DNA of 29,183 nt from an uncultured virus (IMG/VR IMGVR_UViG_2061766007_000542) (Duplodnaviria; Heunggongvirae; Uroviricota; Caudoviricetes), in the IMG/VR virus record IMGVR_UViG_2061766007_000542; one strand, written 5' to 3'. The notes beneath the pieces are model-generated. The model was not told where the DNA came from. It saw only the letters and a program-made list of their open reading frames with translations, and did not search any database. Both the position numbers and the translations under genes were made by a program. Shown here piece after piece: positions 2,482 to 29,183 of this stretch (the stretch's first letter is position 1; every line of letters starts with the position of its first letter).

Positions 2482-2482
2482 T

Positions 2483-2647: not shown

Positions 2648-2653
2648 TGTGTA

Positions 2654-3106: not shown

Positions 3107-3149
3107 TGTAAAAAAGATAGTAAAATAAAATTTATTTTTTATCTATATC

Positions 3150-3320: not shown

Positions 3321-3336
3321 TAGTTAAAATTACATA

Positions 3337-3438
3337 TTAAAAGAATATTTTAAATAATCAGAATCCACCCATTAAACAGAATAAGAGGATATTACCTAAA
3401 ATCTTTTGTGTTTTTATTGTAAAAATTCAATTTTTCAT
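3337..3438 (-). CDS. Hydrophobic micropeptide, 33 aa (MKNGIFTIKTQKILGNILLFCLMGGFGLFKIFF)
   Basis: First ORF after the TTGACA promoter. Shares a near-identical leader with the 3106 gene. Confidence 0.5.
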
Positions 3439-3469
3439 TGTAAAAAAGATAACAAAATAAATTTGCTAT

Positions 3470-3497
3470 CTTTTATGTTTTTATATTTAAATGTCAA
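3470..3497 (-). promoter_or_regulatory. Sigma70-like promoter for the moron cassette (TTGACA-16 nt-TAAAAG)
   Basis: Perfect -35 hexamer at 3497-3492 in the intergenic gap; weak -10. Confidence 0.5.
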
Positions 3498-3499
3498 GA

Positions 3500-5416: not shown

Positions 5417-5419
5417 TCT

Positions 5420-8395: not shown

Positions 8396-8413
8396 TTGTT
8401 TTCGCTTATTAGA

Positions 8414-8442
8414 AATAAAAACACACAAATTTCTTTGTGTGT
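8414..8442 (-). terminator. Hairpin ACACACAAA/TTTGTGTGT plus T-tract, overlapping the start region of late-promoter copy 2
   Basis: Perfect 9-bp inverted repeat 8421-8442 followed by TTTTATTT on the minus strand. Confidence 0.45.
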
Positions 8443-8470
8443 AATATAATCATTTTTTCAATTTTGGCGG
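8443..8470 (-). promoter_or_regulatory. Late-promoter motif copy 2 (CCGCCA-16 nt-TATATT)
   Basis: Upstream of the ejection-protein genes; same spacing as the other copies. Confidence 0.7.
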
Positions 8471-8494
8471 ATTATATGCTTTATCCTTTTTTTA

Positions 8495-9262
8495 TTATCA
8501 GAGTTTTACTATACGGAAAGTACAAGCAACAAAACAATTATAAGTTCACGAATTACATGCTCTTCATACTAAAGGAATAAGTTTTGTCCCTTTCGGATAA
8601 GTCGATATTGCTGTACAATTAAAAGTTGCACCGTTTCAAGTTCCCCTATAACTTGCTCATTCGATATGAGAACACATTCAAGTTTTTGGATCAATAGTAT
8701 CTAAATAAACCCAAGTTTTATCTTTATAACTATTTATTGAATCATAAGTATTTCCCCAATAAGTGAAACTACCACCTATTAAAATATAATATACTCCATC
8801 TTCTGCAATTTCAACATAAGTTGTCTTTGTGGTTTTATAGTTTATAGTGTTTTGTGTTCATCAAGAAGCATAGGTAACCTCTCACTCTCTTAAAATATAA
8901 CTTGTAGCATCAGGAGAAATAATATTATTAAATGCTTTACTTCCTGCATTATATCATAAAGCTTTTAAATCATCATCAGTAAGCCCATAGGGAAGATTAG
9001 AGGGATCTCGTTTCCCTCTTGTAAAGATTGGAGCTTCATAAGATACAGGAGTATTATTGACAGAATTGTCTACAAGAGCCATTCATGCTATCTGTAAAAG
9101 CTTAAAATCAGTATCTTTATTTGCATCTCTGAATTTCCATTTATCTCCTTGTAATCAAGGTCTTATCTTTGTACCGTTATCATCTCTTGGTCGGTTACTA
9201 TCTCAGAAAACGGCGTCATCACCGTTTCTGAAATCGTTCCCAAATTGTTTTCAAGCATACAT
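8495..9262 (-). CDS. Virion tail-associated protein with beta-rich C-terminus, 255 aa
   Basis: TAATG-coupled to the upstream gene. Open with TGA=Gly. YVEIAEDGVYYILIGGSF resembles beta-sandwich tail domains. Confidence 0.65.
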
Positions 9263-11622: not shown

Positions 11623-12296
11623 TATTTATCGATTTTAGAATAATAAATACTTTGTACTCTTTGAGTGATATATCTTTTCATTTCCTCCTTTTTCTGTTCA
11701 TAAAGATTCCTACATCTATCAGCTTTATCAAAGTCTTGTTTATGTTCTCGAAGTTCTGCTTTTAATCCGAACATCACTACTTCGTAAAAGTCTTTTAAAT
11801 CTTCATGTCAAGGGAATAAAACTTCTTCTTCCTCATCATCAAGAGTTATTTCATTTACTGCACTTATTCCTTCTACTTTTAATCCTCCTTCAATAGTTTC
11901 TTCTGGGATTCGATTAAGAATAATATGATTGTCTTTTACGGTATAACCTCTTAATCAAACCAATTCTTCACTGTCTGACAATTCATTTAATACTTCTGTT
12001 CCATTTTCTGTAATGATAGACACTCTCTTTACTTTAGCTATTCAAGGAACTTTAACAGTATTTCAGAGGTCATCAATATATTCTGTTTCTTCTCTCTCGA
12101 TTTTATACTCTTTAGCTCATTCTTGGAGGTCTGTATTTCGATAAGTCCAAAAATAATCTTCTTGTACTGTTACGATCATTCTCCATAGTTCTTTATATCT
12201 TGCATTAAATTTTCTCAATGCTTTTTCATAAGGATAACTAGCAACTGATGTATTTGTATCTTCATAAGCATCCTTAAATATTTCTTCTATCGTCAT
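11622..12296 (-). CDS. Probable head-tail adaptor, 224 aa
   Basis: Directly after the capsid gene. MTIEEIFKDAYEDT..TDLQEGAKEY layout resembles adaptor proteins. Confidence 0.65.
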
Positions 12297-12335
12297 TCTC
12301 AATAATAAATAACAAGTTAAAACATACTATTTATT

Positions 12336-12362
12336 AAAGAGGAGGAGAGATTTCCTCCCCTC
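12336..12362 (-). terminator. Possible intrinsic terminator after the capsid gene
   Basis: Stem GAGGGGAG/CTCTCCTC (one G-U) with loop GAAAT and a weak T-tract. Confidence 0.5.
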
Positions 12363-12373
12363 AAAAATATTTA

Positions 12374-13237
12374 CTAAGCAATAGCTGTAATCTCTGCTTT
12401 TACAAGTTGTTCTCCATTTTGGTCAAATACTTTTCCTCCATGTGCTACTTGTCCTAATAAGTTGTAGTACATTCCAGCTTCTGCTTCAGTTACTTTTGCT
12501 TTTACAAGCTGTCTTACATAGTTGAAAGCTTTTGCTCTGAAAGCATAAACATTTGTAGAAGTGATAAGATTTGATTCAAAGATAGAGAATCCTCCAAATT
12601 TTCCTAACCATCCTTCTACTGCTGCATCAGCTGCTACTTCTGTTCCAGCCAAGATTCCTGCTTGTGCAATAACTGCTGAAACATCAGGAGATACTACAAG
12701 GATTCTATTATTCATAGGAACATCTTTTTTAGAAAGTGCTGTTCTCAATCCCATAATATCTTTAGCAACCGTTGAAACAGACATTGAAGCGATAGTCTGA
12801 ACTTGACTTGAATGAGCTGTAAAGTAAGCATCAAGCATAGTGATAATTGAAGTTTCTACAGCTTCATCAATACCGTTTACAAGGTCTTTCATTCTTTCAC
12901 TTCCGATATTGTAGAGAGTTTGGATTTCTTCAAGGTCTGAGAATTTTTCTCTGTATTGATGCAATTTGTTAATTACAAGGTCAGAGTGAGTGATTGTTCT
13001 ATCACTTGCTGTAATATCAGCACAAGAAGTAGCTTTAATATCTCCACTGTTCAAAGCTGAAACATCTGTAAGAGAGATTTTTGGACTTACTGGAACTGAA
13101 ACAGTATCTCCAGCTCTTCTTAAAGTTCCTTCAAATTCGTAGTTAGCGAATCTCATAAATGGTTTTCTTGGATCGTCAGACATTTTTCTTCTCAATTCTG
13201 CTGCGACAATCTGTGTAATTTTATCAGTATTAGCCAT
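12374..13237 (-). CDS. Major capsid protein (P22-coat-like), 287 aa
   Basis: NYEFEG..RAGDTVSVP, LSKKDVPMNNRILVVSP, GWLGKFGGFSIFESN and HGGKV motifs. Located after the scaffold. Intact even in code 11. Confidence 0.9.
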   Translation of the reverse strand: MANTDKITQIVAAELRRKMSDDPRKPFMRFANYEFEGTLRRAGDTVSVPVSPKISLTDVSALNSGDIKATSCADITASDRTITHSDLVINKLHQYREKFSDLEEIQTLYNIGSERMKDLVNGIDEAVETSIITMLDAYFTAHSSQVQTIASMSVSTVAKDIMGLRTALSKKDVPMNNRILVVSPDVSAVIAQAGILAGTEVAADAAVEGWLGKFGGFSIFESNLITSTNVYAFRAKAFNYVRQLVKAKVTEAEAGMYYNLLGQVAHGGKVFDQNGEQLVKAEITAIA

Positions 13238-13285
13238 AATAATATAAGTTTAAAAGATAAATATTCCTTTGGTTGTTTGTTGTTG

Positions 13286-13450
13286 TTAGTCTTCTTTTGA
13301 CTGTACTTTTGCTTTACCTTCCTTGATTTCCTTTTCTATTGCTAAGAACTGGTCTCTTGGAAGAACTGCTAATTCTTCTTCTGTCCATACTTTAACAGAT
13401 TTCTTTTCTGTTTTTACTTCTTGGACTTCTTTTTCTTCTTTAATAGCCAT
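13286..13450 (-). CDS. Small protein resembling a scaffold C-terminal coat-binding motif, 54 aa
   Basis: MAIKEEKEVQEVKTEKKSVKVWTEEELAVLPRDQFLAIEKEIKEGKAKVQSKED, between scaffold and capsid. Confidence 0.65.
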   Translation of the reverse strand: MAIKEEKEVQEVKTEKKSVKVWTEEELAVLPRDQFLAIEKEIKEGKAKVQSKED

Positions 13451-13458
13451 TTCTTTTG

Positions 13459-13995
13459 TTAATCATTTAAAATTTTTATTTCTCCTTTTTCTGCTTTACT
13501 TGCTATCGTTGCATAAGCAGTTGGATTTTTTTCTGCAAGTTCAGCTATTTCAGAATAACTGTACTCCTTCTTTTCGATTTCTGAGTCAATTTTCTCCCTT
13601 CAAGGATTAGTGTTTACGGTACTTGTTGGAGTACTCACTTGATAGTCAGAGATTTTTAGACATTGTTCCCGTGTTAAGTCTGGATATTTCTCTTTAACAG
13701 ATTTGATTTCCTCTGGAATCACATCAAATCCATTCTTTGCTGAGAAAGTGATTTCATCTCTTAAGTTCTTTTCGAGAGTCTCTTTGTCGACCTCTTGATT
13801 CTCTCTTTGTGCAATATCAGCTTTCTTAAAAGCTTCTTTTGCTTGTTTCTTTTTCTGATCATATTTCTCTTTAGAAACATAGTTGTTTTCAACTTCTTCT
13901 TTAGAGATATACTTCTCAGAAAGTTCTTCTCTTGAGATAAAATCTTCTTGATTGAATTCTTGTTCACTTCAATCATCATACACGATTTTTGGCAT
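13459..13995 (-). CDS. Probable capsid scaffolding protein, 178 aa
   Basis: Charged helical protein upstream of the capsid gene; open with TGA=Gly. Confidence 0.7.
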
Positions 13996-14028
13996 CGCTT
14001 ATTCAGTTAGTAGATAAAAAAGTGTTGA

Positions 14029-14307
14029 TTAGTGGTCACCCTCCACCGATATATCAGATTGATTACTGATCCTTGTTAAAAGATATTCTGGAATCTTTAA
14101 GAACTCATCAATTAACTCTAATTCTTTCAGCTCCATATCTCTTTTGTTATAGATGGACTTACTCCTATCTTCACTGATTCAAGATAGAATGCCAGCTTTT
14201 AATTCTTCTTTTCTATCCTCTAAATATTGTTTGATAAATTCCCAATATTGAGAAGATAGTCAGTCTTTTATTGTTCCAATATCCTTTTTAGCTAAATTGA
14301 GAGACAT
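14029..14307 (-). CDS. Small helical protein following the portal, 92 aa
   Basis: MSLNLAKKDIGTIKDGLSSQYWEFIKQYLEDRKEEL...; overlaps the portal stop. Confidence 0.7.
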
Positions 14308-16270
14308 CGTTTCATGAAGTAGGTCATAAAGCTTGAGGTTGTGCTTGTTCCTTATTATTCTGTGAAATATAATTACTTACAAGCTGATTTTGTGTTGCAT
14401 CGTTTCCTTGTGCCATTCCTTGTTGCATAGCCATTGCTTGTTGTTGTCAGCTTAAGATTAAAGCTTGTCTTCTTTTCATTATTGCTTTTGTCTTTGCTGG
14501 TCAATCAATAGCCTTTTCATACACTTGAATATAAATCTTGTGATTTTCTCCCATATCTGTGATAGGTCAGACATCTTCTCCATTGTTTAAGAGTTCAAGG
14601 TCAAGCATTGCTTTATCATATTCTGGAGGGAAATCATAAATCGTATTTACAAGCTCTGAATCCATTCCCATCACATTTGCAAATTCTCTCGTAAGTTGGA
14701 TTTTTCAAAACTCGTTTGCTTGTTCCATTAAAGGTTGATAAGATGCCATAAATGCACTTTTAGTTGCTTCTGTTTTATCTTGTGCATCGAGTATCGTTAT
14801 AAGTGACATATGTAAATCTCTTTTCGTATCTAAGTCTTTTCCCATGATGGTATAAGTCACATCTCAGAAACCACTATTTAATACAATGTTCTTTTCAGAC
14901 TTCATTTTGAAATACTTTTGATAGCTTCTATACCATAGAACATCCCAATATTTCTTTTCTCCTCGTAAGAATACTTTGAAAATAGTTGTAAGTCTGACAT
15001 TTTGATTAGCTTGTAGTAATTGACTCTGTGTAGCGGTAATTGTTTTAGCATATACTCCGATACTTTGCTCGTCAAATCCTATTTCTTTTGTACTTTTAGC
15101 ATCTATCATATTTTTGAGATTGTATCCATCTCCAGTTGAAGAAGTTTGTGTTTGGACATTTTTTATAATCTCTCTATTTTCAAGATTTCATTTTGAAGGG
15201 ACATATTTTCTCTTTCAGAGTTGTCTGTGTGCTAATTCTTTTCAGTCAACCACATCACTATTAAAGACAGTAATTCAAGAGAAAGTTTCCTCATGAATCT
15301 TATTGATTAAGAGATTCATTACTTCTTCTTCGCTCTCTTGATTATCACTCGCTAAATCTCCTACACATAATCCATAAGGATCTCATTTCTTAGGAAGCAA
15401 CCAACTATGAACTACTGGACATGGAATAAGAGTAGCATCTTTTTTCTCCTCTTTTCTTACAGCTTCTACTTCTTCACATCTTATTAAAAGAGTTCTATCG
15501 TTCGCCCATTCTGTAAGATACCACCTTCCATTGAATTTTGTAAAGTGTCTATAAACGGAATATTGTTTTAAAGGAGATTGATAAGTGTTCCACATTCCAT
15601 CGATTCCATAACCATCAGCTCGTTGGAGTAAATTGTTATGATAATCGCTTCCTAATTTTTCTTTTAGATCTTCAAGCTCTTCATCAGTAAGCATAAGCTC
15701 TTTATTCTTATAGAGTTCGTTTATTTCTTCTTCAGAAAGTACAAGCTCAAATCCGTGAAAGTTAAAACCTTTTACTACATCAAAGTAAGGATCAGGAATC
15801 CAACACATAGGAGAATAAAGTCTTTTCTTTGGAGATTCTGTTATATAATCCCAACCTTCATCGACTGCAAGATAAACTCCATAATCCACTTCATCAGAGA
15901 TTTTTTGATAAGTGATGATTTCTTCATCTAATTCCTCATAATCAAACTTCAATAATTTATTCCAAGTTTTAGCATATTCATCATCGCCCCTTTTTCTTCC
16001 TTGAAATTCTACAAGAGGTCTATTCTTATAAAGTGCAGAGATGAAAAGATTCCTGTAAGTATACATTGATTTACTCTTTACAACATCACCGTCTTTTATT
16101 CCTTTTCAGTCTACATTGTATTGAGAAAGATACTTTTTTAAAAGAGGTCTTTTTACTCTTGCGACTTCTGCTCAAGCGGTATATTCATTTTCTACTTTCT
16201 GCAAAATTTCCTCAAAGTCCCAACCTTTGATTTTATCTATCATTTTTTTTGTTATAAAGTTGTTTACCAT
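14288..16270 (-). CDS. Portal protein, 660 aa
   Basis: Frame joining track ORFs 15383-16066 and 14864-15109. CWIPDPY and TITATQSQLLQ motifs, Gln/Met-rich C-tail, follows terL. Alternative start at 16243. Confidence 0.85.
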
Positions 16271-16304
16271 CTTCTTTGTTTTAAGTATCAAATTATTTAC
16301 GGTC

Positions 16305-16332
16305 AGTATAATCAAAAATTCAATTTTGGCGG
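16305..16332 (-). promoter_or_regulatory. Late-promoter motif copy 3 (CCGCCA-16 nt-TATACT)
   Basis: Upstream of the portal gene, immediately after the terL terminator. Confidence 0.7.
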
Positions 16333-16342
16333 AAAATAAAAT

Positions 16343-16379
16343 AAAAAAAAATCTGACTCTTATTTTCAGTCAGACTTTT
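16343..16379 (-). terminator. Intrinsic terminator after terL
   Basis: Minus strand reads AAAAGTCTGACT-loop-AGTCAGATTTTTTTT. Confidence 0.65.
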
Positions 16380-16416
16380 CTTCTTTTTTTGTCTTTTTTT
16401 ATCGAGAAAAATACAA

Positions 16417-17706
16417 TTATCGTGATTCTATGATTTTTCATTTCTTCACATTTCCCTCAAACACTTCACAAACAACCGCTAAATATCTAAAAGCATCAGA
16501 AGAGTGAGAACTCCAATCGTGTTCTGGTCACTTAAAAGAAGTTCTTTTTTCATCAAACTCTTTATGATAATTCTTCAAACATTTTCGCCCTCGTTCTGTT
16601 TTCTCTTTATCGAAATAACATCTTGGAAGTATTGCTCTTGCTGAATTGATTCCATCTAGAACAGAAAGTTTAGGAACTATTTGAACATCATTGAAACCGT
16701 ATTCATACATTTTCTCTTCTACGGTTTTTCAAGTCTGTAAACTTCTTGCTTGTGCATCGTGTGGGAGTCGCACCGTTCAATATCTATAACCTTTCTCTCT
16801 TAAAACTCCTACATAATGAGAAAGTCATTCTCAATTATTCTCATAATGGTCTATTACTCTTATTTCTCTTCCGAAGATTTGGAAGAATCGAATAGCTGTA
16901 CTATCGTTTATTCCTAAATCTCGAACCGTGAAAACATCAAGGGCAGGATCATAAGGAACTTTTGTTCTTTGACCGTTATTTTCCAATTGACTCAGTATTT
17001 CTGCATAATAACTACCATTGATTCAAGCATCAAAAGAGCAATAATACTCTTGTTGAAAAATTGCATCATTTCCATTTTTTTGGATTATTTCTCTTCTTTC
17101 TCATTCAAGAACTTCTGGAGCGATTGCTTTTGTATCTTCTACCGTTTGAATTGATACAAGCCGTTTGTCGTTATCTTTTGCCATATCTAAAAGTTCTTTT
17201 GCATGATTATCTCATCTTGGAGTAAAGTTGAAAATCGCCCAACCTCCATTCTCTGCAAGAATAGGACGGAGAAAATCTCGCACCACTGGACTTTGTAAAG
17301 AGTACTCAGAGAAAACAATTCAGATTGGATTTGTCCCAACGATACTATCTACATTATCAGACCCTATGATTTGGATAATACTTCCATTGATTAGCTCTAT
17401 TTTCATTTCTGTATCGTTCTTTCTGCTTACCAATTCATCTGGAATATGTTTGATAGTTTTCCAACCATCTTTATCGATTCCATCTCGGACGGCCTTCTTT
17501 CATTGTGAATAAGTAGGGAAAACATAATAATAAATTCAGACTTCTTCCATTGCTTTCTTTACTATTACATTGAAACAAGCTTTATCTTTTCAAGCCCTAC
17601 GATGCCAAACCATAATAATTCTTTTTACTCCTTCATCTATTGCTTCAAAGATTGGTAATTGATAATCTCTTGGTTCAAAATGATAAGGAATTGTTATTTC
17701 TGTCAT
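16417..17706 (-). CDS. terL: Terminase large subunit, 429 aa
   Basis: Walker A WHRRA(G)KD; GTNPI(G)IVFSEYSLQSPVV(W)DFLRPILAENGGWAIFNFTPR(G); nuclease TV(W)DLGINDSTAI(W)FFQ; HDWSSHSSDAFRYL. Bracketed residues are TGA (G) or CGA (W). Confidence 0.95.
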
Positions 17707-18119
17707 TTTTTATATGAAATAATGTTAATATTTAAAGAAGTGTCTGACTCTACTTTATCGATATACATTTTATGATACTTTCAGAGTTTTTCTAATGCTG
17801 AGTTTACATTTTTAAGATCATAAATCTTTTGAGTTTTTCCTTTCAATTCTATTTCTTGTCTTCCCATTCCTATTTCTACGATCTCTTGGAGATTTTGTAA
17901 AACATACTCAACTCATACATCTAATTTTTCTACTTTCTTTTGAGATTTCTCTGTTAGATACTCTGAAACCTTAACATTACTTAATAGTTTACATCATAAA
18001 GCTTCTGCCGATTTTTGGCTTACTCAGTAGACTTTCTTATAAGCATCAGTAGCATTGAAGCTTTTTAGATATTCCAGACAGAACATCTTTTGCTTTTGAG
18101 TTAAATCTTTCGTCTTCAT
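17694..18119 (-). CDS. terS: Terminase small subunit, 141 aa
   Basis: LTQKQKMFCLEYLKSFNATDAYKKVYG..KLLSNVKVSEYL..ALEKLGKYHKMYIDKVE; overlaps the terL start. Confidence 0.9.
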
Positions 18120-18150
18120 TTTTGTCGTTTATGATAATAAAACATTTGAG

Positions 18151-18178
18151 AGTATAATCAATTTTTAGATTTTGGCTA
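18151..18178 (-). promoter_or_regulatory. Late-promoter motif copy 4 (TAGCCA-16 nt-TATACT)
   Basis: Upstream of terS. Confidence 0.7.
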
Positions 18179-18180
18179 AA

Positions 18181-18205
18181 ACAAAAAGGGAAACCTAATT
18201 CCCTT
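18181..18205 (-). terminator. Intrinsic terminator AAGGGAA/TTCCCTT plus T-tract
   Basis: Inverted repeat 18186-18205 followed by TTTGTTTT on the minus strand. Confidence 0.6.
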
Positions 18206-18264
18206 AATGCCTAACAGTCATAAGATGACAAAAACGAAACAACATCTCCCAAAGGAGCAACACT

Positions 18265-18292
18265 AATATAATCATTTTTTAGAAATTGGCTA
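18265..18292 (-). promoter_or_regulatory. Late-promoter motif copy 5 (TAGCCA-16 nt-TATATT)
   Basis: Overlaps the stop of the HTH gene; same spacing as the other copies. Confidence 0.6.
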
Positions 18293-18602
18293 AATTTTTT
18301 TCTACTTTATCAATATTTTTTACATTATTCTTGAACTTATTTAGGATCACATCTATTTTGCTATGATGCACTCCTAAGAGGTATGATATTTTTCTTGCTG
18401 AGATTTGTTGTCCGTCTACATATTCGTAGTCAAAGTATAAATCAAAGAGAGTATCATGGATTGCTTCTTTTTGATTGCTACGAAAGTATTTTGTTAGTGA
18501 TATTACATAAGGGATTGAATAAGTGATTATTACTCGATTATCCTTTACTGCTTCTCAAAGGATTCATTTTTTAAATAGCTTTTTACATCTTTCATCTATC
18601 AT
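18279..18602 (-). CDS. HTH protein (sigma70 region-4-like), candidate late transcription activator, 107 aa
   Basis: C-terminal YVDGQQISARKISYLLGVHHSKIDVILNKF helix-turn-helix. Last gene before terS, the usual position of late activators. Confidence 0.65.
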
Positions 18603-18645
18603 TTATAAAACAAAAGAAATAAAAATCTGATTATTTTAAAGAGGT

Positions 18646-19347
18646 TTATAAGTCTGAATTTTTCATACAATCTCTATTAAGATATTGTTCTTTATGTGTT
18701 GCCCACCTGCAATTATCTTTACAATAATCTCAATTACAATCTATCCTATCAATAGTTGTTTCTTTTTCTCAAAACTCTTTACAATGTTTTTCATATGATT
18801 CTCACATATCTCTAAAAAACTCTTCAAAATTTTTCCACTTACATTTTATTCATTTGTCGAAATAATGTTTCTTTCAAGAATATCATTTCGTTCTTCATAA
18901 AATATCACACCAAATAGTATATATTCTCATATCTCTTGTCCTTTCTACTCAATATTTTCTTTTAGTTTTCATAACATCTACACAAATACATCAACAAGAT
19001 TTAGTGTGTCAACTTATAAGATTTTGAAGATATGTTGTAATAATATTTCAGCATTCACATTGTGCAGTTATAACTCTTCTTTTATTCTTAGGTGTTTCTT
19101 CTGATATTATTGTTAATCTTCAATACTTCTTTCATATAATTTCTTTATGTTTTTTATTTACACAACTACATCAAGAAATATTTCATTTTAAAATATGATA
19201 TGCTCTTGTTTCAATTGTTTTTCAACATACATTACACCTGCAAATTAACCATTGATGATATCAAGCCTTTTTTCATAATCATAAAATTGTTAATCATCAA
19301 TATGTTTTTCAGATTGTATCCTCAAAATTTATTTTTTTCCCTCTCAT
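18646..19347 (-). CDS. HNH homing-endonuclease-like protein, 233 aa
   Basis: Two Cys-rich repeats (IGKKYGRLTI..CECGN..NLISGHTKSCGC), IYTIWCDI and TIDRIDCNGDYCKDNCRWATHKEQ. Contains 22 in-frame TGA and is invisible in code 11. Confidence 0.9.
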
Positions 19348-19853
19348 ATTTTTTGTTTTTTTGTTTTTATATAAATATGCCACTTTTCAACCATCTCCTC
19401 ATATTCTCATTGAGATATTTTTACAGTTTCATTATCGTTTCGATAAATTGCTTCTTGTTTTTTTCATACTGTTTCATCCATAAACACCTTATAATCTCTA
19501 TAATTTCCGTGTTTTGTTACATTACAAGTATAACATTGAGGATAGACTTGATTTATATCAAATCTATATTTTAAACATCACCTTGATCTATAGTGTCAAG
19601 CCTGTATTTCTCTTCGAAAAAATCTTTTTTTACAAGTGCAACATTCGCACATTCATTTATCATCAGAATAATACAACCTTACATATTCTGAAAAAACTCT
19701 ATCTGCTAAGTCTTTCCAAGAGTCTCGATTTTTATAAGTTTTGAAAATATCATTTCGTAACTCTTGGTTTTTAGTTTCTTCGAACAATTCTTTTGCTTTT
19801 TTTGTTTTAAAAAGATTGTTTATTCTTTCTTGAAGAGTTTTTCTTTTTTTCAT
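19329..19853 (-). CDS. ninG: NinG/Rap-like recombination endonuclease, 174 aa
   Basis: ADRVFSEYVRL..GMCECCTC..F(W)REIQAGHYRSR..RFDINQVYPQCYTCNVTKHGN. Confidence 0.85.
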
Positions 19854-19913
19854 AAAAAAAGGAAAGAAGCCATATAAAACAGCTTTTCCCAAGTCTTACC
19901 ACAAATTACTTTC

Positions 19914-20118: not shown

Positions 20119-21015
20119 ATGATTAAAACTTTTATTGAACGATTAAAGATTAACAGAAATAGCCCTAAAAATACTTTAGATAATTATTCAAGAGTACTTA
20201 ATAAATTTAATAATTTTCTTACTAAGAGTTCTTTTGGAGATGTCACCCTTTACAACCCTGAAACTGTGAGATTTTATCACATAGATCAACGAATAGCAAT
20301 ACAAAGAGAGAAATACACAATAAAGACTTGTAATTTTTATGTTTGATGTATTAGAAGCTTTTTTAGATTTTGCCTTTATAGAGAGCTGAATGTTTTAGAT
20401 TACAAGGGAATCAATTTCTCTAAAGAGCCTGAAAGGAAAATCGAGTATTTAAACGATGAAGAGATAGAGAGTATCTTTCAAGAAATTAAAAAGAGAAAGG
20501 TAAAAAATAAAAATCAGATTCTTATCAAGGTAAGAGATTTGTGCATCGTTAAATTTCTTTTCTACACAGGACTAAGGATTTCTGAACTTTTGAATTTAAA
20601 GAAGTCTGACATCAAGGACGATATGATCCAAGTAATAGGAAAAGGAGGAGTGCATAGAGTAACTTTCATAAAGAGAGGAACAGAAGAGAGGAAGCTTCTT
20701 GACTATTATTTACGATTAAGGAAAGATAATGAAGAACGACTTTTCGTAAATCATAGCAATAACAGTTGAGGGAAACTTAGTAGAAATTCCGTTGAAAGAA
20801 TGGTAAAAGAGGAGTGAAAGAAACTCTGAATAAAGGTACGACCTCATATTTTCAGACATAGTTTTGCCACAAAATTGATTAGAAAAAAAGCATCTATTTT
20901 CCATGTACAGAAACTTTTAGGACATAAAAATATACAAACGACTCAAAATTACCTATGATGTCTGGATAAAGAGCTTGAAGAAGTGCAAGAATTAGTAAAA
21001 GAGAAAATAGAGTAA
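20119..21015 (+). CDS. Tyrosine recombinase (XerC/D-like or integrase), 298 aa
   Basis: N-terminal SAM-like domain ([10 protein letters not shown]), [35 protein letters not shown] and [16 protein letters not shown]. Full R-K-HxxR-H-Y catalytic set. Confidence 0.92.
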
Positions 21016-21018
21016 AAT

Positions 21019-21066
21019 ATGCATTGCATTATGCAGTGCATATATGCAGTGCATCATGCAGTGCAT
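21019..21066. repeat. Four tandem 11-bp palindromes ATGCA(G/T)TGCAT
   Basis: Copies at 21019, 21031, 21044 and 21056. Confidence 0.9.
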
Positions 21067-21079
21067 ACATTAAATTTAT

Positions 21080-21400
21080 ACAGTTGTGAACTGTTAAAAC
21101 ATCACTATACAAAGTGATAAAAAACCACTATAAAGCATTAAAAAAGTATGAAAAGAAAAGAAGAAAAAAAGAAAAGAAAAAAAAGAAAAAAAAGAAAAGA
21201 GAAATTTCCCCCCCACACCCCCCTATATAGAGAAAAGAAATAAAAAAGAAAAATAAAGAAAAGAAAAAAAGAAGAAAAGAAAAGGCTTTTTCCAAAAAAT
21301 TTATTTTTTTGTTGATCAATGAATCAGATAGGGGAGTGGAGTTGGTTAAAAAATCAGATCATTTCTTAAACACAAAAACACAGTTGAGAACTATTAAAAC
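21080..21400 (+). repeat. 21-bp direct repeat ACAGTTGWGAACTRTTAAAAC flanking an A/G-rich tract
   Basis: Copies at 21080-21100 and 21380-21400 with 2 mismatches, exactly 300 bp apart. Confidence 0.8.
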
Positions 21401-21590
21401 TTTTACGGCGACCAAAACAAAAAAGGGGAGTGATAATAGTTTTTGACTATGATTTCTTACATTTTCATCTCTTTTGAGATGTGATTTTGATGTAATTTTG
21501 AAAAATAATTCATAAAATTTATTTATTTTTTGTCAAGTTTAGTAAAGTTTTATCAGTTCTGAATTGCTATAAAAAAAAGTAAAAAAAGTC

Positions 21591-21618
21591 TTGCAAAATA
21601 ATTTTTTAGGATTATACT
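21591..21618 (+). promoter_or_regulatory. Sigma70-like rightward early promoter (TTGCAA-16 nt-TATACT)
   Basis: Upstream of the plus-strand replication operon. Confidence 0.65.
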
Positions 21619-21687
21619 ATAGGCGTTATCAAAGATTACAAATTTCTTTTACATTGCACAAGATACATAAGTGCAGGTAAAAAAATT

Positions 21688-21722
21688 AAAAGTCTTTGAT
21701 CGCAACATCAAAGGCTTTTTTT
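21688..21722 (+). terminator. Leader terminator 1
   Basis: AAAAGTCTTTGAT-CGCAAC-ATCAAAGGCTTTTTTT. Confidence 0.7.
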
Positions 21723-21799
21723 CAAGTCTAACCACAAAAAAGATTTTACAAAAAGGAGCTATGATGTTTGGAGTTCGCCTACATCCAAATTAACGGAAT

Positions 21800-21873
21800 A
21801 AAGTCTGTTTATATACGGTGGTAGGAAAATGCGAACTCCTTCCTACTGCCAGATATAAACGGACTTTTTGTTT
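21800..21873 (+). terminator. Leader long hairpin / terminator 2
   Basis: 21800-21827 pairs with 21840-21867 (26 pairs including G-U, 2x2 internal loop), then a T-rich tail. Confidence 0.65.
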
Positions 21874-21914
21874 ATACGGTAGAAAAAATCTTTTATTTTC
21901 TAACCTATCACGAA

Positions 21915-22097
21915 ATGTTTACAATTTTCGACAAGGGAAACGGTAGAAACTTCATCGGATACAAAGATGGTGGAGCATTCGAACTGGTAAAAGAAGGAGG
22001 GAGGATCTACATTGCAGAGTGGAAATTTGATTTCTGACTTTGTGCCATGTGAAATCCTCTCGTCTACGGTAAGGACTTTATCTACGGAGAAAATTAA
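21915..22097 (+). CDS. Hypothetical protein, 60 aa
   Basis: MFTIFDKGNGRNFIGYKDGGAFELVKEGGRIYIAEWKFDFG...; first ORF after the leader. Confidence 0.65.
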
Positions 22098-22100
22098 GAA

Positions 22101-22661
22101 ATGAAAGTCGAGTATTTAGAAAAAATGAAAGACTTTTATTCAAAACTTCCACCAGAACAACAGGCTGAATGACTTTCACTTCTCTTAGATGAAATCATTA
22201 GAGAGAAAAAAGAGAAAGCAGAATGCTGAAATAAAAAGTGGAATAAAAAATCTTCAAAAAAACTCATTTCTGGATCTACCACACACACAAATCCAGAAGA
22301 AAAAACAAGAACAGAAGAAAAAACAAAAACAGAAGAAAAAATCAAGGTAAAAGACTTTGTCTATCTTACTCAAAAAGAGTATGACACACTCAAAAGCGAG
22401 TATTGAAGCAGGACTACTTCGGATATGATAGACCGTTTGAACAATTACATCTGAAGCACTTGAACAAAATACAAATCGCACTACTTCACAATCTTGAATC
22501 GGATTAGAAAAGAATGAATACCGAAAAGATATATTGAAACCAAAACGAGAGTTGAACAAGTCCAAAAACAAAACTTTTATTCTGAAAACAAACAAAATGA
22601 AACCAATAGCAATTCCTCCTTTAACCGAAGAACAGAAACAGACTGTAAGGAACTATTTTAA
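22101..22661 (+). CDS. Probable phage replication initiator, 186 aa
   Basis: C-terminal VYLTQKEYDTLKSEYG..IDRLNNYIGSTGTKYKSHYFTILN(W=CGG) motif of phage replisome-organiser proteins; internal repeat linker. Confidence 0.7.
22294..22341 (+). repeat. 18-bp tandem repeat CAGAAGAAAAAACAARAA (about 2.7 copies) inside the initiator gene
   Basis: Units start at 22294, 22312 and 22330. Confidence 0.7.
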
Positions 22662-23040
22662 TGGGGATACTGCATGACAAAAAGAAAGCCGTATCTACTT
22701 CCGATACTGAAGAATGAGAGCAGAATGAGAAAGGATCTTAGCTGCTGAAATGAATCTGAAAAAAGTCCAAGATGAACAGAAAGAGAAATACAAAAGACAT
22801 ATGGAACGAGTAATCAATGAAAACATCAAAGAAGATAAAAAAAGATGATGAGATTGAAACTATGTAATCGTAAAGGTAAATCAATGGACAAAATGAAATA
22901 CTGTTGTATTAGGGTTTGATGATGGACGGGATATTGAAACAAAAAAACAAAAACTTTCTAAAGTTATAGAAATAGAGGAACGGAAAAATCCTGATTACTA
23001 TAACGAAATAATCAATAGATACCATTTTATCGATAATTAG
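22597..23040 (+). CDS. Hypothetical protein, 147 aa
   Basis: Open with TGA=Gly; overlaps the 3' end of the initiator gene; TTTTATTCT leader. Confidence 0.65.
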
Positions 23041-23044
23041 CACA

Positions 23045-23218
23045 ATGCAAACTTATAGCGATACAGAGAAATTCTTTGAACTTTCTTTCAGAGCGAAAAA
23101 GCTTTGATATGAAAAAGACAAATGTAGAGAACTTGCAAGAGCATATATCAAATATTTCTACGAAGTTCCAATCAATTGAGATATCCTTCTCTTTGAAGAT
23201 CGGTGCAAAAAACAATAA
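23045..23218 (+). CDS. Hypothetical protein, 57 aa
   Basis: ATG..TAA, tightly packed between neighbours. Confidence 0.6.
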
Positions 23219-23242
23219 TTTATTACTTAAACATATTACACA

Positions 23243-23836
23243 ATGAATGAAAAAAACTTATTCAAAAAAATCAACGAGGTAAAGAATGCTATTAGTAAAG
23301 CAAATCTCAAAAAGAGCTGAAAAAACTCTTTTGCTAAATTCGAATATTACGAACTATCAGACTTCTTACCTCTTTTAAATGAAATATGTGATAAAAACTG
23401 AATCTTTAATCATATTTCATTTGAAGAAAACAAAGCAGTCTTAGAGATTATCAATTGTGATAATCCAGCACAAGTAGTAAAATATGAAGTTCCTACTTGT
23501 GAACTTGAATTGAAAGGTTGTAATAAGATTCAAGCTTTAGGAGGTGTTCAAACTTATAGTAGAAGATACCTTTACATTACAGCTTATGATATCTGTGAAA
23601 ACGATTCATTTGATGCTGTTACTTGAGATTGAGATAAAAACGAAAAGAAAGAAAAATCTGACTTTTCAAATGAAGATTTAGAGAAAATAACGATATCTAC
23701 TCTTGAGAAAAACAAAACTGTAGAAGAATTTATAGAGAAATGCAGAACGGTTAAAAACATTTCAAAAGAAATGGAAGAAAAAATTAAACATAAATTCTCA
23801 GAAGTAGCTAATTCTTTATTTGAAGATGCTAAGTAA
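23243..23836 (+). CDS. erf: ERF-family single-strand annealing protein, 197 aa
   Basis: LKKSGKNSFAKFEYYELSDFLP..IQALGGVQTYSRRYLYITAYDICEND. Confidence 0.9.
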
Positions 23837-24246
23837 TGGACGAAAATATGAAAAACTTAGAGGAGGCTTTAATTGTGAGCCTCCTCACAAAGAACGAATA
23901 CTTCAAAGGGAAGTGATTACAACTTACAGAAGATGATCTCTTTGAATGGATAAAGCTTCAAGATGAAATAAACGATCTTGTAGTAAAACTCCGTTCAAGA
24001 GCAGTCGAGGAGAAAATGAGGCTTGATGTAGATAAGGGAAAGAGAACTCTCGAACTTAAAACAGAATTAGATGAGAACGGAAAAAAGAAATATACAGAGA
24101 GCCAAATTGATGCAATGATTAGGAGTGAATTTATCGAGAAAGATTTAGAAATAAATTATTTCAAAACACAGCAAGATTTACTCTCTAAGAAATCAGAGAC
24201 AATAACAGAATATGTAAATATTGTGAAACTTACTTTGAAAAAATAA
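23836..24246 (+). CDS. Helical hypothetical protein, 136 aa
   Basis: TAATG-coupled to erf; extends track ORF 24016-24246 upstream through a TGA. Confidence 0.7.
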
Positions 24247-24271
24247 ACCTTTTATTCTTTAAACTTACATT

Positions 24272-24550
24272 ATGAGAAAAAACCGATTATTGATAATTTG
24301 TATTATCTTGATGATTTTAGGTTGTATTGGATTCTGTGTAGGATTCAAACCATCGGATAATGATACTTTAGAAGAAGTAGCAAAGCTAAAAGAAAGACTT
24401 GACCAAATAAATGAATCTATTTCTTTCAATAGTGATGAATGGAAAAGACTTGAAGAAAGTCAGAAAGACCTTGAGAAAGGGAATGCAGAACTAAGAAAAG
24501 AAAAGGAAGCAACAGAAACAAAGATTAAAAACCTATTGGGTTTAGGGTAG
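24272..24550 (+). CDS. Membrane-anchored coiled-coil protein, 92 aa (0-frame product)
   Basis: N-terminal hydrophobic helix and coiled coil; ends just after the slippery heptamer G GGT TTA. Confidence 0.8.
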   Translation: MRKNRLLIICIILMILGCIGFCVGFKPSDNDTLEEVAKLKERLDQINESISFNSDEWKRLEESQKDLEKGNAELRKEKEATETKIKNLLGLG

Positions 24551-25047
24551 GAGAGAGTGACTCCGAACAAAAAACTCCTCAACAAAAACAAAAAGAGGAA
24601 AAAAATATTAAAGAAACATCAGGTAGTATCGTTTTAGAAAATCAAAAGAGCGAAGAAAAATCTGAAAGTGGAATAACTGTAGGAAATTGAAAAAAGATAA
24701 TCAAAAATGAATTTCAAGAATGAGATGAAAGGACAAAAATGGTACAGTATGCTTACGAGGTTTGAGGGTATGATTTAGTTGCACTTATTGAGTGTGAAAA
24801 CGCTACATGGAATCCTTTCAGACAATCAGATGTTTATAAGGATTGAGTAAGAGAGCCAAGCTTTTGACTCTGCATGATCCACAAAGGTTTTCATCCTGAG
24901 ATTGTAAATGATTCAAGATTTTGGGAGGATTGGAAACGACAGATTGATACTTGTAATAGATTATATCAATGAGGTACGAGATTCTATTGACCAAGTAGAA
25001 TGATTAAAGGGAAAAGATGTTCAGACTATGTAAAAGACCGTTTTACT
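24538..25047 (+). CDS. Lytic-transglycosylase (SLT-like) domain in the -1 frame, probably reached by frameshift; truncated by N gap
   Basis: Frame open from 24529 to the gap with first ATG only at 24739. LVALIECENATWNP..EPSFGLCMIH resembles the catalytic-Glu and GLxQI motifs. Confidence 0.65.
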
Positions 25048-25105
25048 NNNNNNNNNNTCCTGATACCTTACTAACACTTTTAAGAGATAACAGGCAAGAG
25101 AGAAG

Positions 25106-25276
25106 ATGAAGAAGATAACAACAAAGGAAGAATACGAGCAGAGTTGTAAGAGATTCTATGAATTACAACTTCAAATCAACAAATGTGATGAGAACATCGC
25201 AAAACAAAAGGCAAGTGTTATTGAGAGAATCTTCTGAGTATTATTTGATAAAATTTTTAAATCTGATGAAAAATAA
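25106..25276 (+). CDS. Hypothetical protein, 56 aa
   Basis: ATG..TAA, TAATG-coupled to the next gene. Confidence 0.55.
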
Positions 25277-25566
25277 TGCCAAGAAATAAAGATAAACAAA
25301 ATGAGTATGACTATCATCATTTGAACTCTTATTCCAATGGTTGAACAGACAATCCAGACAATATGCTTAACATAAAGAGGTCAGAACACGAAGCGTATCA
25401 CAATTTATTCTGATGACTTGGGATAATAGATGCGTTGAGAAAGCTTTTCTCACGATGAGAAAAATCATTTGAAGATGGGAAAATCAAAAATGAATTAAGA
25501 GATTGTCTAAGAGATTTAGATTATAAAGACTCCTGCAAAGGAGGGAGTAGAAAAAAGAGAAGATAA
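25276..25566 (+). CDS. Small HNH-motif protein, 96 aa
   Basis: DYHHLNSYSNGGTDNPDNMLNIKRSEHEAYHNLFG. Confidence 0.75.
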
Positions 25567-25592
25567 ATCAGACTTTTATTCTTTTAAAAGAA

Positions 25593-25838
25593 ATGATAGA
25601 GATAAAAGACCGAGATGAATACTGTAATCAATTCATAGATACTTTCCACTTTCAATTAAATTGATGTGCAGAAGCCTATCAGAGATTTATAGGAGAGCCG
25701 AAAGTTTTTATAAGCTTGAATATCTTTAAGTTCGAGGATAAGATGAGAGAGAAATGATATAAAGACGGAGCATTGAAAGAGTTTGTTGAAAGTAAGTATT
25801 GAAAAGAAGCAAGTGTTTTAATTGATAAATTATTGTAA
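25593..25838 (+). CDS. Hypothetical protein, 81 aa
   Basis: Open with TGA=Gly; TTTTATTCTTTT leader. Confidence 0.65.
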
Positions 25839-26098
25839 TGTCAGAAATCCGAACAACAAAAATAGGCGGTCAAGAGTTCGTGACACTTACGGACTACCTC
25901 AGATTAAAAGAGGAGAAACAAGAGCTTGAATATCTTTGAGATATAAACGAGGAACTGAAAGAGGAGAATAAGAAACTGAAAGATGACTACCAAGAACTAA
26001 AAAGCCAAATCTTATGTATAGTAAGAGAAAGCAAAAGAGTTTGAGAAGATTTATTACAGACATATAAAGATTTAGAAGATTATGTAGAAGTCACTTAA
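25838..26098 (+). CDS. Coiled-coil hypothetical protein, 86 aa
   Basis: TAATG-coupled; heptad-like LKEENKKLK. Confidence 0.65.
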
Positions 26099-26109
26099 TC
26101 AGATGGAAA

Positions 26110-26260
26110 CTCACCTGCCGTTCTAGTAGCCGGTCATAACGGCATACTAGATAAAAGAGGGAGATTATATAGGTCGGAGGGTAGTTTATACGAGAAAAAA
26201 ACAGCTCATATTACTCGAGCTATGATATGAGAAGAAATAGGGTAAAAACCTGTCCGACCT
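26110..26260 (+). ncRNA. Candidate structured RNA(s): pseudoknot plus multibranch stem
   Basis: Relatively GC-rich non-coding gap with several complementary segments (see findings). Family not recognised. Confidence 0.4.
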
Positions 26261-26282
26261 GCTTAGATTATAAACAATAAAG

Positions 26283-26696
26283 ATGGAAAACAAATTAGAA
26301 CAGCTATTGAATAGCTTGATAGAGAAAGGGTGGAAACCATTTGGAGAATGATGTCATAGGTCGCCATATAAAAGAGTTGGTATTCATAAAAATTACAATA
26401 AAGAAAGGACTTATGTATTGTTTTATAGTAATAACCATTCTCATTGGAAAGTATTAAGGCAAGTGGTTTCAAGAGAAAGCTGACTATGGCAATTCGTGTG
26501 TGAGAATAAAATGGTACGACTTGATACAGATTCGTGAGAGAGTGATAGTTATCTTTGTTATTATAACATCGACGGATATCCAAAAGATGATCGCTTTGAA
26601 ATGGGAAGAGATGATTATCGTTTCCGGCTAATAGAATCAGCCTTGAAAGATGAGTCAGAATTAGAGAGTTTTATTTTAGATAACATCAAAGTGTAA
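26283..26696 (+). CDS. Hypothetical protein, 137 aa
   Basis: MENKLEQLLNSLIEKGWKPFG..SRESGLWQFVCEN..; open with TGA=Gly. Confidence 0.7.
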
Positions 26697-27019
26697 TGAA
26701 AGACTACTGTATGGAATGCTTACAAGTCAACAATGCAATCACACGGCTTGTAGATAAATTCTGAAAAAAATACTACGGAGAAGACTTCAAGATTGAACGA
26801 ATAGATCGAAAAGATGAAGACTTACACTGCAACCTCCGAATCAATACCATCCACCGAAACATTGATGAAATCTACACGGCTCTATGGTTTGATATACCGA
26901 AAGAAATAGTCTTAAAATTCAAAGAAGAACAAACAGACAAAGCAATAAAAAAAGAAACATTTATGAATCTAAAAAACTTTTACTTCTTAAACAAAAAATG
27001 AGAATCATCATCCAAATAA
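26696..27019 (+). CDS. Hypothetical protein, 107 aa
   Basis: TAATG-coupled; five CGA/CGG codons plus one TGG. Confidence 0.65.
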
Positions 27020-27447
27020 TAACAATAGTAATCTGCATGACATATACTCCAACGATGCAGGGGAAAACATACATCCCAGCAGAGCAACCACAAATCAATG
27101 CTAAAACATCAGCAGAAAACAATGAGAAGATGTGGAAGTATCTACGAGATAACAGAATAGAGATAGATACAAAAGGGAAAGTATACATCGCTTTCATAAC
27201 AGAGAAAGAAATCAAAGAAAACACAAACATCTTCATAGGGATAGATTGAAAAACAATTTGATGGCTTGATAAGAGTAAGAGAATCAAAACAGAGAATCCG
27301 AAAGAGTTTCTCTATCAAATATCATCAATAGACTTGATAGGGAATAACAATTATAAATTCAAAGCAGAAATCAAAGGAGATAAACTGAACATCAATGCAG
27401 TAGTAGGAGAAGATAATAACAAGATAGAAGAAATCAAAGTGTTTTAA
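26998..27447 (+). CDS. Hypothetical protein, up to 149 aa (start may be ATG 27037)
   Basis: Track ORF extended through TGA to TAA. Confidence 0.65.
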
Positions 27448-27462
27448 ATTATAAAAAACAAA

Positions 27463-27663
27463 ATGAAGAACTATGATAGTGCAATAGATGAACTCGTAAT
27501 CAGTGCAAAAAATGAACTGGACAGGACAGATTGTGTGACTCCTGCTTTCTTATGTCAAGACAAGAAAGGGAAAGAGAGAGTAGAATTCTGATGAATAACA
27601 ACGTTTCAAAAGTTAAAAGAACTTTGATACAAAATCTTACAAGTATTTATCCCTGACATTTAA
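27463..27663 (+). CDS. Hypothetical protein, 66 aa
   Basis: Open with TGA=Gly. Confidence 0.6.
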
Positions 27664-27666
27664 AAC

Positions 27667-27873
27667 ATGCTGAAAAAAATCAAAAACCTAAGACCGTGAG
27701 AAGTCCCAATCTACAGATGCAGGATCGCAAGAAAAATCAAGGGATGAGTTTACTACGGATACGTAGAGGGACAACTGATAGGAACGAATCAATTCTTCCG
27801 AGTAGTAAAAGAACTCTTGAATAACTACTGCAAGAAGAAGTATAGGAGAACAATCAAACAGATGAGTGAATAA
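27667..27873 (+). CDS. Basic hypothetical protein, 68 aa
   Basis: Open with TGA=Gly. Confidence 0.6.
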
Positions 27874-27896
27874 TTATTTACATTATATGGTATCTT

Positions 27897-28000
27897 ATGA
27901 AAGAGATAAAAGAACTCTTTGAAAGAGGGATAAAACACTGATATTCTCCAACTGATGTATTTGATGATTTCTTGAATGTAACGATTTTAAGTATCATAGA
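27897..28000 (+). CDS. 5' fragment of a second allele/copy of the N6-methylase-like gene, cut by N gap
   Basis: Same peptide as 28220-28323; only synonymous differences if TGA=Gly. Confidence 0.7.
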
Positions 28001-28025
28001 NNNNNNNNNNTTTAACTAATACACA

Positions 28026-28217
28026 ATGGAAAACTTAAGAATCACAAAAAAATATACAAAAAGAAAAGAAGGGCGAGAAAGCCAACTAATCATAAAACGG
28101 AAATGAAACGAGATAGAGGAAATAAACGAGGAATCAGAAAAAGTATTTAATGCAATAAAAAAGAATGCTCCAGCTTGTATGAAAAGAGCAATGAAAGATT
28201 TAGATAATGAGGAGTAG
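28026..28217 (+). CDS. Hypothetical protein, 63 aa
   Basis: ACACAATG start, TAG stop. Confidence 0.6.
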
Positions 28218-28219
28218 AA

Positions 28220-28948
28220 ATGAAAGAGATAAAGGAGCTATTTGAAAGATGAATAAAACACTGATATTCTCCGACTGATGTATTTGATGATTTCTTGAAT
28301 GTAACGATTTTAAGTATCATAGACATAAACAAAACGGAGGAATACGAAGAAAACGAGAAAACATACGAGAGAATAATCAAAAAATATGATTGAGATGTTG
28401 AAATGTTTTCAAAAATACTTGCTTGTTTTGTGAAAAAAATGGAAGAAACACAAGAAACATTAAAGGATTGGATTTGAGAATATTTTATGCAAGAAATATC
28501 ACACGGAGAACATTGACAGTTTTTTACTCCTGATCATATAGCTCATCTTTGTGCAGAAACGACGATAAATAAATTGACAGAAGAAAAGAAATTCCCATCT
28601 TATATGGATTGTGCTTGTGNNNNNNNNNNCGGTCAATTCTTTACTCCAGATCATATAGCCCACCTTTGTGCAGAAACGACGATAAGTAAATTGACAGAAG
28701 AAAAGAAATTCCCCTCTTATATGGATTGTGCTTGTGGAAGTTCAAGAATGCTACTACAAGCTCAAAGACTTAAGAGAAGGAAATCATACGGAACAGATAT
28801 TGATAGAAGATGTGTTTTAATGAGTGTCTTTAATCATTTATTCTATGGATTGATTGGATGCTTTACCGTATGAAATACCTTAATGAATGAAAGGAAAGAA
28901 GTATTTGAAGTTATGCCACCTTTCATTTACCACAAATCATTTAATTAA
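28220..28948 (+). CDS. N6-adenine methyltransferase-like (HsdM-like, short) protein; internal segment duplicated across N gap
   Basis: IGEYFMQEISHGEHGQFFTPDHIA, MDCACGSSRML, YGTDID and GNTL; ends VMPPF..TAA. Confidence 0.75.
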
Positions 28949-28971
28949 CTTTTATTCTTTAAAATAACACA

Positions 28972-29183
28972 ATGGAAATAGTAGTAACAAAAATTCCAGA
29001 AACCAAAACAAAAGACGAAATGTTTTGATTTGAATTTGAAGGGAACAATGTTTCGTTTAGATGAAAACAGCTTGAACCAGCAATAGCAAGTTGAATCTTC
29101 TTGCTATATAACGAAATCAAAGAAAAAGAAAACCAAAGAGCAGAGGCAAGAAGAGAGAGAAATTATTACAAAAGAGAACTTAC
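28972..29183 (+). CDS. Hypothetical protein, runs off the window
   Basis: TTTTATTCTTT..ACACAATG leader; open to the window end with TGA=Gly. Confidence 0.6.

Follow-up and report, generated by a model that had tools for sequence, protein, structure and literature searches.

A candidate two-gate RNA leader with an internal attachment site ahead of a phage replication operon

Introduction

The antisense-controlled attenuators of pT181 and pIP501 and the leader-peptide pseudoknot of the IncB and IncI-alpha plasmids use loop-loop recognition, with a variable specificity sequence placed before the replication initiator. Unlike in those plasmids, neither a separately promoted antisense RNA nor a leader peptide was found at the locus described here. 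In phage P4, control depends on the CI RNA with seqA and seqC, which has been described together with IsrK of Gifsy-1 (PMC4825925), and c4 motifs have also been listed (PMC2864571). As far as the former account goes, P4 resembles the present locus in having, before its replication genes, a leader in which a structured RNA has its complement further upstream, and in being controlled by premature termination. It differs in that here there is one target, no seqC, and no likeness in sequence or in Rfam; moreover, the pairing loop is here the terminator loop, and the promoter is lost on integration.

Other described systems share the role of integration. In BPs, Brujita and Charlie, immunity is integration-dependent, and attP cuts the repressor gene, removing a degradation tag (PMC3694055). 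As described there, attP lies inside the control unit and recombination itself sets the state, as appears to be the case here; the present attP, however, lies in a non-coding leader and would separate an RNA antiterminator and its terminator, and the small ORFs scanned include no recognizable repressor. In ICEKp1 and in ICEclc (promoter Pcirc), a promoter that points outward in the integrated element meets its genes only after circularization, and stem-loops in the 5'-UTR attenuate when the element is integrated (PMC13023037; PMC5812530). The junction of promoter and genes in the circular form alone is common to these elements and the present phage, whereas the reported control concerns the integrase gene and here it concerns the replication operon and involves an antiterminator strand of matched sequence and, as a second gate, a kissing loop. 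Gokushoviruses of enterobacteria integrate at dif (PMC7062461), and XerS/difSL is a single-recombinase system (PMC1914069). In these accounts as here, the site measures 28 bp (two 11-bp arms and a 6-bp spacer), one arm is degenerate in the phage copy, and the host palindrome is regenerated at one junction; unlike the gokushoviruses, the present phage is tailed, encodes its own Xer-like recombinase and carries the site inside its early leader. In E. coli, terminator loops have been reported to mediate regulation, probably not by base pairing (PMC11979758); this is only a loose parallel to the second gate. No published description of the present element was found in the open-licence PMC and bioRxiv literature.

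On balance, we favor the explanation that a two-gate RNA leader controls the replication operon of this phage. Such a leader would offer a concrete answer to how a temperate phage stays silent without a visible repressor, since the integration site in the leader may allow dormancy without a repressor protein. Its second gate is a covariation-backed RNA family absent from Rfam, and the hosts of these phages belong to a group for which hardly any gene regulation is known.

Results

Genetic code, host and genome

The window, i.e., the whole stretch of 29,183 nt that was analyzed, has almost no long ORFs when read in table 11 and shows tailed-phage genes when read in table 25. In protein alignments of 7 recombinases and 3 ERF proteins, none of the 42 non-identical cases of CGA or CGG places R opposite the codon, and 35 place F, Y or W there. 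The phage code is TGA=Gly and, as judged from these alignments, CGA/CGG=Trp, and a code of this type has been reported for Absconditabacteria (PMC8629427). Because the recoding pattern matches that code, we infer that the host is an Absconditabacteria-type CPR bacterium. Code-25 prophages, though not their control, have been described (PMC10746230). By run record, the sequencing runs that contain the DNA are mostly bovine gut metagenomes, and no RNA datasets are among the runs listed. Within the window, the late genes (1-19900, minus strand) meet the integrase side (20119-29183) head to head. The 68-kb record carries a second unit of the same kind (recombinase/leader type) at 62311-63930; it also contains N gaps, has a repeat of 158 bp at positions 25059 and 67824, and is probably a scaffold of two related phages.

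Organization of the leader

The leader is placed between the tyrosine recombinase gene and the early operon, which also encodes ERF (Table 1). All the sequence elements that the original prediction had claimed at 21753-21872 are present where it placed them, while the genome recoding, H1, the promoter, attP and the first attenuator, 40-170 nt upstream, had all been missed.

Table 1. Features of the leader and its flanking genes in the window
Feature	Position	Strand	Basis or remark
Xer-like tyrosine recombinase (phage integrase), 298 aa in code 25	20119..21015	+	Pfam Phage_integrase, E 4e-33
Early promoter, TTGCAA-16-TATACT	21591..21618	+	Consensus scan; predicted
5' antiterminator strand, pairs with T1 5' arm and loop	21623..21637	+	Forms first in nascent folds
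attP, 11+6+11 mimic of the host dif-like palindrome (left arm 21651-61, spacer GATACA 21662-67, right arm 21668-78)	21651..21678		Layout in 12 leaders
Terminator T1, 13-bp stem and U tract	21688..21722	+	z -5.3; exclusive of the antiterminator helix
AAGGAG (21753-58) and mini-ORF MMFGVRLHPN (ATG ATG...TAA, 21761-93)	21753..21793	+	Present; most likely incidental
Hairpin H1, presenting code word a in its loop	21766..21790	+	-6.7 kcal/mol in the window
Code word a (GGAGTTCGC)	21770..21778	+	Covariation with a'
Terminator hairpin T2: 10-11 bp upper stem, internal loop, A/U-rich lower stem (stem 21800-21867, U tract 21865-72)	21800..21872	+	z -6.4
a' (GCGAACTCC), 3' side of the 12-nt T2 loop	21831..21839	+	Exact complement of a
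Echo of T2 5' arm, which could pair with the T2 3' arm once freed	21870..21882	+	6/200 shuffles
Hairpin H3 over the U-rich region ahead of the first start codon	21878..21907	+	Predicted in the OFF fold, absent from the a:a' fold
First early ORF, 60 aa, family not known	21915..22097	+	Anchor for gathering relatives; 8 homologues
Replisome organizer / DnaD-like initiator	22101..22661	+	phrog_13246, E 2e-20

The recombinase is 37% identical to a host Xer-like protein, and its best NCBIfam matches are XerA, XerC and XerD, every one under the cut-off. A search of viral contigs with the integrase profile returned, among 80 loci, only 2 known close relatives. The first early ORF has no match in Pfam, NCBIfam or PHROG, and searches of genome contigs with ERF and this ORF gave no matches. 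Between the integrase and the promoter (21017-21072), a 10-mer occurs three times as an imperfect palindrome and is followed by an A-rich tract; relatives carry other repeats in the same position, and these sequences may be an iteron-like origin or a recombinase operator. A further hairpin lies upstream of the promoter at 21375-21455 (z -3.0), and one of its arms is also complementary to 21544-21566.

The attachment site and the proposed first gate

The predicted early promoter recurs at this position in all relatives whose upstream DNA is long enough, prophage junctions excepted, and T1 is present in the relatives with differing sequence. The antiterminator:T1 duplex has a mean energy of -13.3 kcal/mol for cognate strands versus -4.7 kcal/mol for non-cognate ones, the cognate partner being best in 12 of 14 rows. 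Mutually exclusive helices, with the antiterminator forming first, are thus predicted for T1 and supported by covariation.

The attP site is placed between the antiterminator strand and T1. The palindrome that it mimics occurs in 78 of 141 genomes of the host order, mostly as one copy (control, 3/141), and the palindromes in these 141 genomes carry the same spacers as the phages. All 10 contigs compared (long ones picked by hand, 20 kb per side) show a fall in GC skew across the palindrome, with a change of sign in 5, and an xer homologue lies within 1.5 kb of 4 of 35 host sites. The palindrome is probably the dif site of the host bacterial order; the recombinase acting at it could be the host or the phage enzyme.

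Integrated copies reveal what recombination does to the leader. Locus L051 aligns with the bacterial locus L313, in which an empty palindrome lies at 4892-4919 with secA nearby, up to the left arm, and then continues into the phage spacer, the right arm, T1, H1-T2 and the operon. Genome G093 carries both junctions, on separate contigs: one consists of host genes (DnaB), a hybrid site, T1 and the operon, with no promoter, and the other of the recombinase, the promoter, a strand that pairs over 14 bp with the G093 T1 (-16.9 kcal/mol) and the restored palindrome. At the DNA level, integration separates the promoter and the antiterminator from T1 and the operon, and H1-T2 is retained in both prophage junctions. 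In the free phage, T1 would be held open by pairing with the 15 nt at the start of the transcript; integration at the host dif site would remove the promoter and the antiterminator and leave T1 as an insulator. We are confident that attP splits gate 1, the DNA step being observed and the RNA step presumed. The original prediction had stated that no CI-like repressor gene was visible. None was recognized among the 70 small ORFs scanned, 57 from G001 and 13 from the window; this is not proof of absence, and the attP-split leader explains the lack better.

An RNA loop for a protein had also been considered for the motif at 21651-78 and was dropped in favor of attP. Scans of whole collections with the attP core yielded chance matches (at least 120 and 49 loci), and only one of the 49 loci, a known relative, had a promoter and a terminator. 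Several variants of the site were seen. In the L043 leader, a single antiterminator helix encloses a tandem of two attP-like cores whose spacers differ. In L039, a piece resembling the 3' half of a tRNA (1867-1907) takes the place of the dif mimic, which suggests a tRNA attP at the same leader position; this piece has no exact genome match, and none of 18 loci contains a tRNA according to ARAGORN. In G093, the dif arms recur in a second, degenerate palindrome between the recombinase and the promoter (L354:2990-3020), G122 has several arm-like sites near the palindrome, and in two runs the window position 21663 reads G instead of A, which gives another spacer known from host genomes.

Conservation of the a:a' pairing in relatives

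Relatives were gathered by a pattern for the first early ORF, which gave 4 viral and 19 metagenome loci. In total, 21 loci were examined, including the record's own two; L033, L041 and L049 were left out before counting (not phage ORFs), and the remaining loci collapse to 15 distinct leaders, the window's included. A Watson-Crick run of 7-10 bp to the T2 loop, 31-48 nt upstream of the loop, is present in all 15. Two further leaders, found later in host genomes, fit the pairing with new words, so that it holds in 17 of 17 distinct leaders. Among the 10 closest leaders, cognate runs average 9.2 versus 5.5 for non-cognate ones, a sum reached by 2 of 3,628,800 permutations, and in a MAFFT alignment, where the window's row is shifted by one column in the loop, both sides of the a:a' helix are changed in 6 of 9 pairs (0 of 500 shuffles); because the leaders are kin, these permutation and shuffle counts are not probabilities or p-values.

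A near-identical strain has 13 substitutions in 868 nt, of which T21774A and A21835T swap both sides of one pair of the a:a' helix. In another close contig, the H1-T2 stretch (21741-21885) is exchanged for 127 other letters with matching flanks, and two other close contigs have no listed change within the code word. Different words sit on identical T2 stems in the pairs L044/L051, L040/L042 and L042/L047, and words differ where the flanking stems are 94-100% identical. The stem of T2 comprises 23 pairs in the leader alignment, with 99.1% of cells paired and 5 pairs changed on both sides; a 10-bp upper stem above the internal loop is found in all 10 close leaders, and 15 of 17 leaders have 6-7 T in the 8 nt after the stem. 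H1 folds at -3.7 to -7.5 kcal/mol in all 10 leaders of subfamily 1 and is weak (-0.6 to -1.3) in four others.

In the window, the fold of the hairpin region (z -4.3) is matched by 0 of 200 shuffles. The a/a' 9-mer pair occurs once in the 68-kb record, and when the bases of the 73 upstream nt were shuffled 200,000 times, a 9-bp match to the T2 loop arose 70 times. In nascent folds, the a:a' pairing probability ranges from 0.67 to 0.99 over the 17 leaders and is 0.95 in the window when the T2 3' arm has not yet emerged. The perfect complementarity of the upstream 9-mer to the hairpin loop, which had been noticed in this one sequence, is confirmed and proves to be conserved by compensatory change, and a:a' is almost certainly a real RNA helix. 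Twelve loci of viral contigs with an exact 9-mer pair were also collected, and none matched the RNA model. Between T1 and H1 (21730-21745), a C/A-rich element, CCACA(C), lies in a weak hairpin and recurs in all subfamilies; a protein site or a partner of the T2 5' arm is possible.

The mini-ORF

The original prediction had interpreted the element as an attenuator coupled to translation of the peptide MMFGVRLHPN. AAGGAG and the ATG do exist, and the ORF spans a. In none of the 14 other leaders, however, is a frame over the code word opened by an ATG, the code words of other subfamilies are without GGAG, and a close strain carries a 1-nt deletion at 21779 (in a contig whose other gaps are not listed). 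The accompanying claim that strong Shine-Dalgarno (SD) sites are rare is borne out, SD-like 4-mers preceding 5 of 211 ORFs (ORFs of at least 90 aa in five records, starts set at the first ATG), and this near absence of SD use itself argues against AAGGAG serving as an SD. As judged from these comparisons, involvement of a leader peptide is largely refuted, and a ribosome-coupled attenuator is scarcely credible. What stands of the attenuator reading is the RNA pairing, its covariation and the place before the replication genes.

Proposed mechanism of the second gate

The H1/T2 element is the second gate of the early-operon leader. As for T1, mutually exclusive helices with the antiterminator forming first are predicted for T2, backed by folds and covariation. 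Word a in the H1 loop would capture a' as a' leaves the polymerase; the short linker could not then follow the two turns of T2, the lower stem would fail to zip, and the polymerase would read through (ON). The freed T2 3' arm would pair downstream and open the first ribosome site or a following terminator. Full T2, the more stable fold, would represent the OFF state.

Between a and the base of T2, the 15 leaders have a linker of 1-23 nt, versus a stem of 19-25 bp, and the two later ones have a linker of 3-4 nt. A straight-line distance test (2.8 Å per bp, 6.5 Å per nt) rules out the kiss together with the full stem in 7 of the 15 leaders only, and the window's 23-nt linker passes; with the ring closed, however, this linker would have to wind with two helical turns, for which, by geometric estimate, about 30 nt would be needed. 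The 10-bp upper stem of T2 could coexist with the kiss. The OFF fold has an energy of -46.7 kcal/mol versus -35.8 kcal/mol for the ON fold, approximately 11 kcal/mol in favor of OFF. Since OFF is more stable, ON must be the kinetic state, and finished RNAs should consequently expose both loops.

A downstream partner for the T2 3' arm (at most 9 of 200 shuffles) is found in 15 of 17 leaders. The exceptions are L039, where it is absent (96/200), and G093, where it is weak (140/200, or 24/200 with a longer window chosen afterwards). In the window, the echo pairs with the T2 3' arm when a:a' is enforced in the fold, and in its subfamily the partner is predicted to open H3 over the first start region, so that H3 may gate translation. 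In the 2 leaders whose T2 lacks a U tract, the partner of its 3' arm is the 5' arm of the terminator that follows. Either arrangement gives the same sign, and the folds make it fairly probable that the kiss means ON.

RNAs with full T2 would expose both loops and could capture a or a' of new transcripts, leading to termination. RNA of the same phage would thus turn further copies OFF, and the fast-changing word would make this silencing phage-specific. No second target of the T2 loop (at least 7 bp) was found at a shared position within 1.5 kb in the 15 leaders, the RNA model finds one match per phage unit, and no antisense promoter was found; the leader RNA itself is therefore the simplest trans partner. 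We would give trans control by the phage's own RNA a little less than even confidence. By eye, no internal promoter was seen ahead of H1-T2. Since T1 should stop most prophage transcription before H1-T2, a lysogen may make little H1-T2 RNA, and gate 2 would more likely act in the free state, sensing copy number or co-infection.

Discussion

The reading that accounts for both gates is that dif-mimic recombination, by splitting the antiterminator, sets lysis or lysogeny without a repressor, and that the kissing word lets the leader RNA count or silence its own copies while ignoring those of relatives. Both codes would diversify so that phages sharing one host site neither trigger nor block each other. 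We hold this reading tentatively, as possible rather than probable. Given the short codes and a sigma-70-type promoter, both gates can be tested in E. coli or in vitro, with no need to culture the host, and they would form a set of natural orthogonal terminator switches.

The nearest alternative is an attenuator that acts only in cis and kinetically, in which the kiss sets a fixed read-through fraction or a pause and the word merely drifts, any complementary pair being good enough. The lack of a second loop target near the leader in a consistent place, of a second copy and of an antisense promoter speaks for it. Compensatory double changes, however, should by established reasoning be slower than neutral ones, whereas the words differ although the flanking stems are nearly identical, and in one close contig the whole module has been replaced; we consider a purely cis-acting device unlikely. 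A still less probable explanation is that the RNA made in a lysogen and processed to T2 would bind the leader and force termination, as in P4 CI, with the kiss recording this trans pairing and favoring OFF. The logic is that of CI pairing with the upstream seqA as described in PMC4825925, an upstream target complementary to the RNA loop is present in 17 of 17 leaders, H1-T2 is kept at both prophage junctions, and in the second unit of G000 the T2 loop pairs over 10 bp with the 5' antiterminator strand (-13.7 kcal/mol). On the other hand, such cross-talk is specific in 1 of 13 leaders only, for which reason it was rejected as a general pairing, and no seqC-like downstream site is conserved. Neither the window nor any of 8 related loci reached the gathering score of an Rfam family, and the 10 weak matches are generic terminators with no C4-type among them. 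The likeness to P4 CI and P1 c4 that had been proposed from the window therefore holds for the logic only. Moreover, integration removes the promoter that would make the RNA, so that a lysogen would contain little of it, which weakens the P4-like reading further.

The terminated RNA of approximately 250 nt might instead be the product itself (structural, a kissing multimer, a decoy or host-targeting), or the hairpin might act as single-stranded DNA at an origin. The very stable fold (z -8.2) and the iteron-like repeats upstream would suit such roles, but conserved G-U pairs in T2 favor RNA over DNA, the hairpin position, the U tract and the relay to the next terminator fit attenuation, and integration cuts the transcript; these roles appear very improbable.

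A stand-alone promoter of the early type, two hairpins and a U tract at G000:C1 53460-53570 (minus strand, L026) would give an RNA of approximately 65 nt. This RNA was not found in G001, G002 or the other loci searched, and as a partner of the leader it did no better than shuffles (102/200) and was rejected. A segment of this RNA pairs with the second unit's T2 loop (-16.6 kcal/mol, 5/200 shuffles), but the segment lies inside a stem. In the second unit (G000:C1 63670-63930, L025), the same word is present in the T1 loop and the T2 loop, with its complement in the 5' strand and in H1, and cross-talk between the two gates is possible there.
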